Source: Eledone cirrhosa (Eukaryota). Taken from it: a DNA stretch of 64,000 bases. Both the position numbers and the translations under genes were made by a program. A model generated the notes under the pieces. The model was given only the letters and a program-made list of their open reading frames with translations. It was not told where the DNA came from and ran no database searches. Positions within the stretch are counted from its first letter, which is position 1. The number at the start of each line of letters is the position of its first letter. The stretch is from NCBI GenBank assembly GCA_964016885.1, contig OZ024749.1:6448001-6512000 (forward strand), written 5' to 3'. Shown here piece after piece: positions 12,059-56,520 of this stretch.

Positions 12059-12115
12059 AAAACACAACTTCTGATGAGGAACCAACTAGGTCTGAAAATC
12101 AATTAAAGGTGTTTT
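12059..12115 (+). ncRNA. Minimal type-I hammerhead ribozyme motif
   Basis: Stem I AAACAC(AA)CTT / AAG-GTGTTT; CTGATGA at 12071; stem II GGA(A)CC..GGTCT; GAAA at 12094; short stem III AAT/ATT; UUA cleavage triplet. Confidence 0.65.
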
Positions 12116-12685
12116 TTCCATTTTTTTCAACTTACAAAGAAATTCGTATTTTCATCCATATTTACATGCTTTCATATTAGAAATGTGTGTATTCATATAC
12201 ACATAGATGCAATCTCAGTTACCCACTTTGTATGTATATAGATATAACTTTATCGTACATTTTGGCTGTTAGTAAACTTCTTCATATATATCTTAAGTAT
12301 TCAATACTAGTGCCAATTATCTATAGATTAGTAAGAATAGATATATAAGCCCATCATGTATGTGTTTCCTTGTGGTTGTTTGGTTGATATACATGCCTTT
12401 TGTTGAGGGCACAAAGGTCCAAAAATTGATTAAAGGTGCTTATCATTTTTTGGTTTTGAAATAACAGGAAATTCGTATTTTCTGGCCTGTTTACATGACT
12501 GTATATTAAAAAATGTGTATATCTATATACACATTGGTGCAGTCTTGATTACCCACTCTGGAAAGTACACATATATAACTTTATTATACACTTTGGCTGC
12601 TGGAGCACTATCGCTCTGTATAATCAGCTCCTGATTATTACTGGAATTCTATAAGAATCCAGCTTCTATAATGTTTGGCGAAAGC

Positions 12686-12746
12686 GGGGGAGTACTTGGT
12701 TCTGATGAACGCCAACCTGTGTGAAACAGACTGTCAGCTTCTCTCC
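12686..12746 (+). ncRNA. Minimal type-I hammerhead ribozyme motif
   Basis: CTGATGA 12702-12708; stem II ACGC/GTGT; GAAA at 12723; stem III ACAG-A-CTGT; GUC triplet ending at 12735; weak stem I GGTT/AGCT plus GGGGAG/CTCTCC. Confidence 0.65.
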
Positions 12747-12894
12747 ATTCTGTCACCGAAAAGAAGTAAGTGACATAGTCACTACTTTAAAACCGATAGC
12801 GTATGGTCCTCTAAATGTTTTTAATTAAACATACAATATATTGTCAAATATACTATACATACATTCATATATATATATATATATATATATATAT

Positions 12895-13135
12895 GATGGC
12901 TGCCCCCTCGTTATTGAGTATGGCCATTGCACAATATATTAATTAATTCTATTGTGCAATGCCTGTGTGTGAAGATATTTTTTAAAGTGAGGAAAGACTG
13001 TGCACTGAGCCAATCCCACCTTCTGAGCGACAGTAGCTATAACCCGAAAGGAAGAAAATATCAGTTATCCCAGTTTCCTGAGTTGCCTTCTTCTAGAAGA
13101 ATGCCCTGACAAAGGCTAGGGGTCCTTCACTCCCA
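12895..13135 (-). mobile_element. Short non-autonomous RTE-derived element (5'UTR-like part joined to 3' end)
   Basis: Shares GGCCATACTC..AACGAG..GGCAGCCA(T/C)CAT 3' end and GTGGGA(T/C)TGGCT..GTGCA..CACAGGCATTGC block with 49521-49800. Confidence 0.5.
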
Positions 13136-13811
13136 GATATATATATACACACATACACATACATTATATATATAATCTTGCTGTGAGTTTTTTAAGCTGA
13201 GGCCATTACACTGCTACATTAGAATCCATGTGAAAATTTAGGATATAATTTATCAGCCAAATCTAGGTTACTAACTGTACACAATTACTTTGTACATATT
13301 GCAGAGACTTCCATGATTTTCAAGGGGATATAATGATAGACTGCAATGTCGCAAGTACATATTACACTTGAAGCAGATAATGGCATTGCCCTTAAGTTAA
13401 AAAGATGTAATAAAGAAATTTAAACCAATCTATTTTTTCAATATCATCAACTGATGTTTACTCTACAGAAGATGATATTACCTGTACCAACATGACATTT
13501 TCAACAATTTGCCCCAAGTTATAACCAGAGAAATTTAATTAGAAAAATTAGGAAAATAAAAATCTGTGGAAATAAAATTTGTTTGGTAGACAGGTAAGAA
13601 AATAGGATTTGATTTACAAATGTAGTAATCTTGATTATCTTAGGGGCCACTAAGGCTCTCAAGAACATCAGAAATGTTGGACAGCATGATTCTTTTTTAT
13701 TTTTTATCAAAATATAGCTTTGGGTGATTATTTTATTAACTCACAATAAGGTGGTCTAAATGGTGAAACATTAGAACAGCACATGGTATGATGATGATGA
13801 TGATGATAATA

Positions 13812-13990
13812 ATTGTTTCTACTTTTGGCACAAAGCCAGCAATTACCCAGTGCATTACTGGTACTTTATTTTATCGACCCCCGTAAGGATGAAAGGCAAA
13901 GTTAACCTCGGTGGGATTTGAACTCAGAGTGGCAAGGGCCGTAACTCAATGCGTCAAAGCATGGTGTCCGACCCTCTACCGATACTGCCA
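13812..13990 (-). mobile_element. SINE family 1
   Basis: Core and A/B boxes present. Another copy lies at ~14288-14440. Confidence 0.88.
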
Positions 13991-13999
13991 AAGACAATC

Positions 14000-14282
14000 A
14001 AGAGCAACCTTCATGAAAAATCCCTTCATAGCACCGTCTTTAAGAAAACGGAATTCAGAGATCCACAGACATGGTGCTGGTTAAAAAGAGGAGACCTTAA
14101 AAAAAAGCTACAGAAGGAATGCTAATGGTTGCACAAGGGCAAGCCCTCAAAACAAAGTGGGTGAAACACCATATTGACAAGGAGGAGGCTAGCCCACTCT
14201 GTAGGATCTGTGGAGAGAGAGAGAGAGGGGACTGTGGTTCACATTGTATCCAAGTGTAAACACATATCCCAGACTCACTATA
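14000..14282 (+). pseudogene. R4/Dong-like (RLE-type) non-LTR retrotransposon, C-terminal fragment
   Basis: Frameshifted translation TWCWLKRGDLKK/ATEGMLMVAQGQALKTKWVKHHIDK...PLCRICGE..TVVHIVSKC has the W.WL..G.LK..TEG..AQ.QAL motif and a CCHC knuckle. Confidence 0.75.
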
Positions 14283-14499
14283 ATAATAATTGTTTCTACC
14301 TTAGGCACAAGGCCAGCAATTTTGGGGTGTACATTACTGGTACTTTATTTTATTGACCCTGTAAGGATGAAAAGCAAAGCTAACCTCAGCAGGATTTGAA
14401 CTCAGAATATATGCCCTTAGTATGTTGTCCGACACTCTAATCCTCCAGCAATATGATTCTAAAGTTATCATTAAAAGTGGATCTATGTCCACTGCAGCC

Positions 14500-53935: not shown

Positions 53936-53985
53936 GCTTTCCTGATGATCACTTTTGAATGAAACAGTTCTAGTTCTGTAGAAGC
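53936..53985 (+). ncRNA. Hammerhead motif in the right arm of inverted repeat 53298-54006
   Basis: GCTTTC CTGATGA TCACTTTTGAAT GAA ACAG-TTCTAGTT-CTGT A GAAGC. Confidence 0.62.
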
Positions 53986-54323
53986 CATTTCTATATTTAA
54001 CATGATATATGTAGTGATGAAAATAAAGTTAGAGATAATGTTGATAATGATGGTGATGATAATGATGATGCTGATGATCATAATTATTATCTTCATTATC
54101 GTGTTGATATATATACAAATGTGAGGTATCAAAGCATATCATATATGTTTGATTTGGTATCAATAGGTTATTGATACCCGTTTGATTTTTGTGCTTCTCA
54201 ATAAAAAGGCTCAATATAGACTTTGTCCAGAGTGTACAAGGCTTGAAGTAGCACTATAGGGAATTTTATTGTTCCCTTCTGGAGTACATATTTTTATTTG
54301 AAATATGTGCATTGTATATATAT

Positions 54324-54503
54324 AATTGTTTCTACTTTTGGCACAAGGCCAGCAATTATACCAGTGTATTACTGGTACTTTATTTTATCGACCCTGTAAG
54401 AATGAAAGGCAAAGTTAACCTCGGCGGGATTTGAACTCAGACTATAAAGGGCTGTAACTCTTTGCAGCAAAGCATGGCGTCCAACCCTCTACCGATACTG
54501 CCA
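54324..54503 (-). mobile_element. SINE family 1
   Basis: A/B boxes and core present. Confidence 0.9.
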
Positions 54504-54561
54504 ATATTGTGTATTCTCTTGGATATATGGTGTGTGTGGGTTTATGTTTGTATGAATATAT

Positions 54562-55075
54562 AGGGAGCTACTGCCACTGCTAGCTGCAAAAGGCTTTTCC
54601 CTCAAAATGAAAGGCAGACTGTATGATGCGTGTATATGAACAGTAATGTTACATGGAAGTGAAATCTAGGCGCTGTCTGTAGAAGACATGCACAGATTAG
54701 AAAGAAACAAAGCTTGCATGCTCCGATGGATGTGTAATAGTAACATACGCAAACGGCAAAGTATAAATGAATTGAGAGAGAGACTGAGCATCAGAGGAAT
54801 CAAATGCTGTGTGCAGGAGAGGAGGTTACGTTGGTATGGACATGTGATGTATATGAAGGACGACAGCTGCATAAAAAGTTGCAGAGCACTAGAAGTCGAT
54901 GGAAACCACGGAGTGGGGAGACCCAAGAAGACCTGGGATGAAGCGATAAATGCCGACCTTACCCAATTGCACCTCTCAAGAGCAATGACACACAACCATG
55001 ACCTCTGGCATCACGCAGTAATACAGAAGACCCGACCTCCCCACAGGAACAAGCCGAAGCTGAAGCATATGGACA
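54562..55075 (+). mobile_element. RTE subfamily C fragment with stops, 3'UTR missing
   Basis: RELLPLLAAKGFSLKMKGRLYDAC..RRLRWYGHVM..GRPKKTW. Confidence 0.9.
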
Positions 55076-55984
55076 ATATAAAAAGGGAAAAGTAGTGAGG
55101 AGAGAGGAAGAAAGAGAAAAAAAACGAAGTAAAGAGACCAAATGGAGGGGGGAGGACATAGGACAATGAAACAATAGAATATAATAAGTTACAACGAACC
55201 GATTAGACTTAGGTCTGGTGGTGCAATAACTAGGAGCGGGGTAGTTCTGTGTGATCGCAACTAAGGGAGGGTAGAGAGAGAGAGTGAGAGAGATGGAGCA
55301 ACCAGAAGTGAGAGGGAGAAGGGAAAGGGAGATGATCCAAAAGAGTTTTACGACATGTCGTAAATGATCAAAAACGGGCAAATGGATATATATCTCTCTC
55401 TCTCTATATATATATATATAGAGAGAGAGATAAACTCCTCTGGTTTGGATCATTTACCACATTTACGACATGTCGTAAAACTCATTTGGATTTTCTCTCT
55501 TTCCCTTCTCCCTCTCACTTCCGGTTGCTCCGTCTCTCTCACTCTCTCTCTACCCTCACTTTGTTGAGATCACACAGAACTACCCCGCTCCTAGTTATTG
55601 CACCACCAGACCTAAGTCTAATCGGTTCGTTGTAACATATTCTATTCTATTTTCCCCTCAGTTACACACTTGCATGTTCCATTGTCCTGCGTCCCCCTTC
55701 CATTCGGTCTCTTTACTTTGTTTTTTTCTCTTTCTTCCTCTATCCTCACTACTTTTCCCTGTTTATCTTTTTCTTTCCCTGGCCTTTTGATCAATAAAAG
55801 GCCTTGGGCCCGATGCTGATCACATTTGATGTCCTGTTTTAAGTGCCGAAACATCTATGATCTGCGGTTAACAGCTGATGAAGGGTTTCTTCTTTTGTTT
55901 CGTCCATATTACCATCTTAAACTTTGTTTACAGTAACCACACAGCTCACTTCATTTCTTGTAATTTTATATATATATATCCTCC

Positions 55985-56265
55985 TCATCATCATCATCAC
56001 CGTTTTACGTCCGTTCTTCCACGCTAGCATGGGTTAGACGGGTTGTCCTGTTGTGGGCAGTGTCTGGTCGGCTGACCATGCCTTGCTCATACAGGAACTG
56101 ATTTGGCTTGATTTCTACAGCTGGATGCCCTTCCTAACACCAACCTCATTTACAGTGAGTGCTGGGTGCTTTTTCGTGGCGCCTACACGTCCACTTTACA
56201 GTGTGGGCTGGGTGCTTTTTTGCCGTGGCACCTCCACGACCACCTTGCGGTGGGGGGTGTGGGGG
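55985..56265 (-). mobile_element. RTE subfamily C 3'UTR
   Basis: Reverse complement of 35105-35388. Confidence 0.88.
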
Positions 56266-56426
56266 CATATTTATATATATATATATAGTAACTGGACATT
56301 ACAATCCCTAAATATATATAAATATATATATATAGCATGTTTAACACGCTGTGACTTCTCTCTCCCACGTGTAGCTGGACAGTCAATTTTAAAATTCTCT
56401 TAGTGTTGTCTGAAATGTATAGCCTT

Positions 56427-56520
56427 ACACACGCTGATGAACCGAGGCTAACCCATTTCTTTCAACAAATTACTGGTGAAACATATCTTTGGATTAGTGT
56501 CTTTGGATTTGTACGTGTGT
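56427..56520 (+). ncRNA. Type-I hammerhead motif with extended loops
   Basis: Stem I ACACACG/CGTGTGT (7 bp); CTGATGA at 56434; stem II ACC(G)AG/CTGGT; GAAA at 56478; stem III ACA-T-ATC/GAT-T-TGT; GUA triplet at 56511-56513. Confidence 0.7.

Follow-up and report, generated by a model that had tools for sequence, protein, structure and literature searches.

Minimal type I hammerhead ribozymes are an established component of animal retroelements, having been published in 2014 in the pseudo-long terminal repeats (pLTRs) of Penelope-like elements (PLEs; PMC4209133) and in 2020 (PMC7229834) and 2026 (bioRxiv 10.64898/2026.07.22.740005) in retrozymes. Counts of 2,000-9,000 per genome are given in PMC4209133, and of ~5,000 in mussel and up to 120,000 in axolotl in PMC7229834, each with a descriptor different from the one used here. 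A literature search combining hammerhead ribozyme and octopus returned nothing on such elements, and the words 'hammerhead' and 'ribozyme' are absent from the main text of a 2026 repeat annotation of Octopus vulgaris (PMC13282606). Here we analyzed a 64,000-nucleotide (nt) window of the 3.0-Gb Eledone cirrhosa genome (GCA_964016885.1, contig OZ024749.1, positions 6,448,001 to 6,512,000 of the forward strand), in which an initial annotation had reported 12 hammerhead ribozymes. These motifs are probably type I hammerhead folds that end nine retroelement insertions, four of them from coding PLEs and five from repeats of 310-600 nt that carry no open reading frame (ORF) and likely use the same PLE enzymes. 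The window thus adds families to a known system rather than a new concept.

Hammerhead motifs in the window and in the genome

All 12 reported CUGANGA...GAAA motifs, at 12071(+), 12702(+), 32167(+), 35965(-), 36232(-), 36330(+), 44940(-), 52626(-), 52709(+), 53363(-), 53942(+) and 56434(+), are present. The excess over shuffled sequence that the initial annotation had anticipated was also found: a structured descriptor (core, stem II, stem III and NUH) identified 11 sites in the window, compared with means of 0.6-0.9 in dinucleotide shuffles of the window, none of 400 of which reached 11. These sites comprise 10 of the 12 motifs and 57356(-), which lacks a stem I and is probably a chance match; 53942 and 56434 were missed because their stems III are longer, as seen in the family alignments. 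Requiring a perfect palindromic stem III together with stem I gave seven matches versus 0.01 in shuffles (0/400 reached seven). A stricter first descriptor, with at least two pairs beginning at positions 10.1-11.1, kept two sites (0.03 in shuffles) and was dropped as a general detector, being too strict for the families of this window. Further CUGANGA..GAAA sites were set aside at 20090, inside a GAA microsatellite, and at 43007 and 57604, which fail the structured descriptor.

To place the window in its genome, we applied one descriptor to 59 evenly spaced 10-kb stretches (589 kb, with 20 shuffle rounds) and found 58 motifs in 17 sequence clusters, or ~1 per 10 kb, versus a mean of 0.9 in shuffles. 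The same descriptor finds seven motifs in the window, which is therefore ordinary for this genome. Extrapolation gives ~295,000 motifs genome-wide (bootstrap 193,000-412,000; 264,000 if one tandem array is counted once), a scale that exceeds the published per-genome counts cited above. An Rfam scan of the window gave no hammerhead family among the matches listed (150 of 164). That the motifs are chance matches in AT-rich, repeat-rich DNA might be argued from the bare heptamer, which is only mildly enriched (37 in the window versus 22-26 in shuffles), but this explanation is ruled out for practical purposes by the excess found with the full descriptors in both window and genome sample, and by tight pattern searches of the genome for the hammerhead of the family at 56434 (1293 matches) and for a permuted motif described below (154 matches), each with 0 matches to its control, the pattern reversed.

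The 12 motifs are not independent: they represent nine insertions, the pairs 36232/36330, 52626/52709 and 53363/53942 being the inverted arms of single insertions. The nine insertions belong to nine families, named here by motif position (F12071 and so on), between which blastn detects no similarity at E 1e-3, bearing out the initial claim of at least eight unrelated families. Each is multicopy, as had been proposed, with 40-47 genome matches (best 40 of 52-2455 first-look candidates scored), and all nine family majorities have the type I core, that is, CUGANGA, GAAA and NUH in this order with stems I-III. Judged by eye against these majorities, five of the 12 window copies match the family fold (32167, 44940, 52626, 52709 and 56434), two are mildly weakened (12702 and 36330) and five are decayed with a broken stem: 12071 has CpG-type changes in stems II and III, stem II of 35965 is short by 5 nt, stem I is broken in 36232 and 53363, and stem II in 53942. 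The description of all 12 as intact therefore stands for the five alone, and we predict that most solo window copies are passengers, inactive or weak. A mostly self-complementary stem III was correctly noted, since a perfect palindrome is present in seven of the 12 copies (palindromic copies also occur within F12071), but F56434, with a 7-bp stem III, and F53363, with a 4-bp stem III and an 8-nt loop, are not minimal hammerheads. The G10.1-C11.1 pair is found in F35965 and F12071, and the other families have U.U, G.U, A-U or A.C at these positions.

Families that carry the motifs

On the evidence of their motifs and ORF links, four of the nine families derive from protein-coding PLEs, of which they are the 5'-truncated ends: a single family is Neptune-type and three are Hydra-type, including one assigned via a sister subfamily. 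Their copies in the window are:

44859..45822, minus strand: 5'-truncated Hydra-type PLE with hammerhead 44940, ending in (TA)n (ORF and 3' repeat)
52405..52930: Neptune-type PLE end, a two-armed insertion with hammerheads 52626(-) and 52709(+) (family majority)
36118..36444: F36330, Hydra-type PLE end, two-armed (inverted), with decayed 36232(-) and mildly weakened 36330(+)
32024..32249, plus strand: F32167, short PLE-type end with inverted tail and hammerhead 32167 (family fold)
42456..42565, minus strand: decayed F32167 copy, core changed at position 5

The clade assignments are motif readings against the definitions given in PMC8557442 and not a tree, and a Nematis-like label for three lineages was replaced by Hydra on these motifs. 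Hydra-type features comprise a CxCX5C linker, CxxC..E..N..CxH, DKT and (TA)n targets, and Neptune-type features, seen in translations from loci L025 and L140, a CX4CxxC linker, CCHH in the endonuclease and DKG. Pfam matches of the PLE ORF to GIY-YIG (E 0.0015) and RVT_1 (E 0.0027) both miss the curated cut-offs. The PLE layout of partial tandems, an inverted 5'-truncated copy and an optional tail was also seen.

The link between hammerhead and ORF is most direct at 44940, where a broken ORF comprising the end of the reverse transcriptase and the GIY-YIG endonuclease (45791-45132), 89-92% identical to other copies, lies ~190 nt upstream of the motif and is followed by the 3' repeat that carries it; this hammerhead has U.U at 10.1-11.1, a palindromic stem III and a GUU site. 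The 52626 and 52709 hammerheads are identical to each other and to the family majority, and elsewhere in the genome F52709 forms a full tandem element with a 4187-nt period (locus L140). For F36330, the linker and endonuclease parts of the Hydra motifs were seen, and the endonuclease C-terminus lies 400-560 nt upstream of the motif in two of 14 loci, whose copies reach 550-560 nt in that direction. No ORF was found for the exact subfamily of F32167, whose window copy has a palindromic stem III and an AUA site, but its sister subfamily (71% identity over 217 columns) is a Hydra-type PLE 3' end with an ORF that ends ~1.3 kb upstream in 10 of 20 loci. A Hydra-type subfamily (loci L254-L273) with a 1.3-kb 3' untranslated region (UTR) shows 99-100% identity among the best 40 of 2269 matches; it is very young and probably recently active. 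In addition, a 35-residue remnant at 34627-34731(-) matches the C-terminus of another PLE endonuclease (L137 family) at 89% identity.

The remaining five families appear to lack an ORF, and four of them repeat at periods of 310-555 nt, resembling non-LTR retrozymes:

12062..12600, plus strand: F12071, decayed tandem dimer (period 329), core at 12071 and a second, broken core near 12400
12598..12876, plus strand: F12702 (unit ~311 nt), with mildly weakened hammerhead 12702
35762..36119, minus strand: F35965 (unit ~335-341 nt), hammerhead 35965 missing 5 nt of stem II
53230..54010: F53363, two-armed, arms meeting at 53776/53780, with decayed hammerheads 53363(-) and 53942(+)
56340..56689, plus strand: F56434, young and retrozyme-like (unit ~545-555 nt), with hammerhead 56427-56520

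Fixed direct-repeat periods were found at 553-557 nt in 6/14 loci of F56434, 293-316 nt in 5/14 of F12702, 332-341 nt in 3/20 of F35965 and 329-354 nt in 3/14 of F12071, the last with 350 and 354 nt at two loci outside the window. Two tandem hammerheads were seen in F56434 and F12071, and F12702 and F35965 show terminal redundancy of one period only. Further F56434 loci include true dimers and partial trimers, with periods of ~510-557 nt across diverged subfamilies. None of these four units matched any of five PLE protein queries. The fifth family, F53363, is an element of ~600 nt with a sharp 5' boundary, and an upstream walk at 20 loci found neither ORF nor period. The 12702 hammerhead has a 4-bp stem II, stem III ACAG-A-CUGU and a GUC site. 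At 12560-12630 the F12071 dimer abuts the F12702 element with no microsatellite between them, possibly through a template switch or a nested insertion. On another contig, near 15.0 Mb, a classic retrozyme array (L189:456-3366) has seven tandem units of 482-492 nt, each with an intact hammerhead with palindromic stem III.

The initial annotation had inferred a large and diverse population of short elements mobilized by PLE enzymes. The type I fold, multicopy families, abundance and PLE-style insertion signature of some ORF-less families agree with this, but shortness does not hold as a blanket statement, given the four families that end coding PLEs and the ORF remnant upstream of 44940.

Insertion pattern, proposed mechanism and alternatives

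The ends of the copies point to how they were inserted. Of the 108 3' ends scored in F56434, 89 cluster in two 20-nt bins, at about +243 and +331 relative to the core, and are followed by (TA)n; two-armed insertions have a different end on each arm in 21 of 30 cases and the same end twice in none. Coding F44940 likewise has one end per arm in 4/4 insertions, at +68 and at least +153, and the two fixed start sites of F56434 are spaced like those of this coding Hydra-type element. This two-end pattern agrees with the behavior of purified PLE protein, which extends both strands and initiates at two internal sites (PMC11167929). Of 126 F56434 arms, 70 run across the cut site and only one starts within 5 nt of it; cleaved linear monomers are therefore unlikely templates, and circles or uncut multimers fit. 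A 9-nt word in F56434 (L124 unit) recurs downstream of both fixed 3' ends, by ~30 nt for the first and ~40 nt for the second, and is a possible positioning signal for the reverse transcriptase.

From the sequences, ORF links, unit periods, fixed 3' ends and two-armed layout, we infer a mechanism in which the PLE protein would nick both strands of a (TA)n target and start reverse transcription at two internal RNA sites, separated by 85-90 nt in F44940 and F56434 and each priming one strand. The two 5'-truncated cDNAs would then be joined back to back, producing the inverted pairs, and most copies would stop early, leaving only the ribozyme-bearing end. Transcription of the ORF-less families would yield tandem RNAs, which the hammerheads would cut to unit length, acting as dimers in families with a short palindromic stem III and probably as monomers in F56434, and the units would probably be circularized; copying from a circle or an uncut multimer would yield copies that cross the cleavage site and exceed one unit.

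Several points weigh against this account. No coding partner sharing sequence with any ORF-less family was found by blastn comparison. The end rule is clear in F56434 and F44940 only, with mixed ends in F52709, F12702 and F36330, and arm lengths are biased because loci were chosen for carrying the motif. Published minimal PLE hammerheads cut poorly even as dimers (PMC4209133), only one of nine Xenopus retrozyme dimers cut (bioRxiv 10.64898/2026.07.22.740005), and PLE insertion in vitro proceeded unimpaired when the hammerhead was mutated (PMC11167929). Finally, positions 10.1-11.1 are often U.U, G.U or A.C, versus the G-C pair stressed in PMC4209133.

The F56434 hammerhead has an additional feature. 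The window copy has a 7-bp stem I, a 3-bp stem II, a long stem III and a GUA site at 56511-56513, compared with a stem II of 2-4 bp and a stem III of ~7 bp in the family, and in the young subfamily to which this copy belongs stem III contains a 14-nt duplication. Loop 2, 31 nt long, shows complementarity to the strand directly 5' of stem I:

56404..56425, plus strand: 5' strand complementary to loop 2 (56444-56474) of the 56434 hammerhead, a predicted pseudoknot or switch helix

In an alignment of 30 rows, 84% of cells pair versus 27-41% in slid controls, and 19 two-sided changes are found versus eight in shuffles. Complementary changes foretold for six loop variants were clear in L234, L235 and L236, partial in L237 and absent in L239 and L240. 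Across 18 representatives, a loop and its own upstream strand pair at a mean of -16.3 kcal/mol versus -12.9 for cross pairs (permutation p 0.00025, for relatives that are not independent and after removal of seven of 59 copies with upstream junctions or deletions). This signal comes from diverged lineages (L236 scores -16.6 with itself versus -7.6 with the main strand), and the own strand is the best partner for the loop in only six of 18 columns. One common subfamily retains C.A, a mismatch, within the proximal helix, and the linear 543-nt unit folds little better than shuffles (z -1.4). Stem I-II pseudoknots are common (~40%) and activating in hammerheads (PMC3088659). The full 20-bp helix would leave a linker too short for stem II to close, and therefore both a pseudoknot and a switch reading stand. 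We tentatively suggest, as a possibility that we consider no better than one among several, that F56434 exists as a circular RNA parasitic on PLEs, whose hammerhead is active as a monomer and carries its own control. In nascent tandem RNA, the proximal 6-15 bp would form the activating pseudoknot between stems I and II; extension of the helix to its full 20 bp would open stem II and so protect the circle, and a Hydra-type enzyme would copy the circle from two sites 88 nt apart, one per nicked strand. If this is true, monomer-competent families, with ~300,000 hammerheads in the genome, could cut host introns at scale. Being young, with natural dimers and a ribozyme predicted to work without dimerizing, F56434 is a good substrate for testing whether and how PLE enzymes mobilize retrozymes and what the hammerhead does for them.

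A different origin of the short units deserves weight, although we consider it improbable: all nine families could be truncated or internally deleted PLE ends whose short periods arose by template jumping or deletion, with no circular RNA stage. Four families are such ends, uncut tandem RNA is no worse than a circle at explaining copies that cross the cut site, and the dispensability of cleavage for insertion in vitro (PMC11167929) fits as well. Against this, the ORF-less units have no PLE protein homology, the F56434 period is constant over many loci and diverged subfamilies, including true dimers and partial trimers, and its fold, extra helix included, is kept by compensatory changes. A related proposal, less probable still, is that catalysis matters little and the fold has been retained for a structural role, either as a signal to the PLE protein or in RNA stability; the non-canonical 10.1-11.1 pairs in young families, the low in vitro activity of minimal PLE hammerheads (PMC4209133) and an anole PLE without RNA-seq ends at the cut site (PMC11167929) are in its favor. 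Nevertheless, the nine families, whose stems are unrelated, retain every letter of the catalytic core as well as NUH, as would be expected under catalytic selection.

Quite unlikely, in our judgment, is the remaining alternative that all copies are short non-autonomous ribozyme elements and that solo copies cut host transcripts, as the initial annotation had suggested for copies in introns. No ORF was found for five families, many of the ~295,000 genome-wide descriptor matches must be intronic, and in F56434 and F53363 a monomer could form stem III. Yet four families end coding elements, decay has affected five of the 12 window copies, and six of the 12 belong to inverted pairs, whose arms would be expected to pair with one another within a single read-through RNA. 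Most copies would require a second copy in the same strand to form stem III. Solo copies of the dimer type and the inverted pairs would be poor candidates for cutting pre-mRNA. In addition, no host exon was found among 133 stop-free frames of at least 40 amino acids in the non-repeat DNA of the window, a result that leaves a large intron possible. The frames matched one DDE_1 transposase fragment, at 39299-39559(-) (E 2.4e-4), and gave five weak matches (E 0.02-0.05) that were rejected as host exons, being retroelement remnants by eye.

Repeats make up at least 68% of the window, including microsatellites and retroelement ORFs, a landscape that we take to be like that of octopus genomes. The 3' ends of non-LTR retrotransposon ORFs, presumably RTE-like, lie at 18980-19387, 22347-22784, 42568-44292 and 54670-55095, one of them with 404 codons, and a long GC-rich minisatellite at 1-3950 gives rise to long repetitive reading frames. 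A thirteenth motif, at 55828-55884(+), has the hammerhead strands in a non-circularly permuted order (cleavage site, GAAA, CUGAUGA), which is that of type SGC in PMC10085705, with stems I, II and III of 5, 2 and 5 bp; its tight pattern occurs twice in the 589-kb sample versus 0-1 times in shuffles. Just upstream is a large inverted repeat with arms at 55173-55291/55533-55651 and 55275-55366/55460-55551.

Relation to known hammerhead elements

The families described here share with the minimal hammerheads of metazoan PLE pLTRs, as described in PMC4209133, the type I fold, a short palindromic stem III, many unrelated families per genome, a predominance of solo copies from truncated PLEs and opposite-strand pairs 100-700 bp apart. 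They differ in estimated number (~295,000 versus 2,000-9,000 per genome, with another descriptor) and in the frequent replacement of G10.1-C11.1, which is described there as a conserved trend and not a requirement. With the Hydra and Neptune clades, as defined in PMC8557442, they share the linker and endonuclease motifs, the hammerhead in the pLTR, (TA)n targeting, 5' truncation, an inverted copy at the 5' end and an optional tail, the tails being ~85-90 nt here versus 30-40 bp there, and one Hydra-type lineage here differs in its 1.3-kb 3' UTR. The supplements of PMC8557442 list Hydra hammerheads and may include relatives of these families.

Like animal non-LTR retrozymes (PMC7229834; 10.64898/2026.07.22.740005), the ORF-less families have unit lengths of several hundred nt and a single type I hammerhead per unit, occur as monomers to multimers and are proposed to be mobilized by PLEs. 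Unlike them, they are mostly one or two units inside two-armed PLE-style insertions. The 545-nt unit of F56434 is longer than the 170-400 nt of PMC7229834 and lies within the 51-972 bp of the 2026 preprint. Finally, F56434 resembles the pseudoknot-stabilized hammerheads of PMC3088659 in having a very short stem II and a Watson-Crick helix between loop 2 and the strand beside stem I. The helices tested in that work are ~4-6 bp, whereas the complementarity in F56434 extends over 15-20 bp in two or three segments and at full length looks incompatible with stem II, so that, in contrast to those hammerheads, it may also be a switch.

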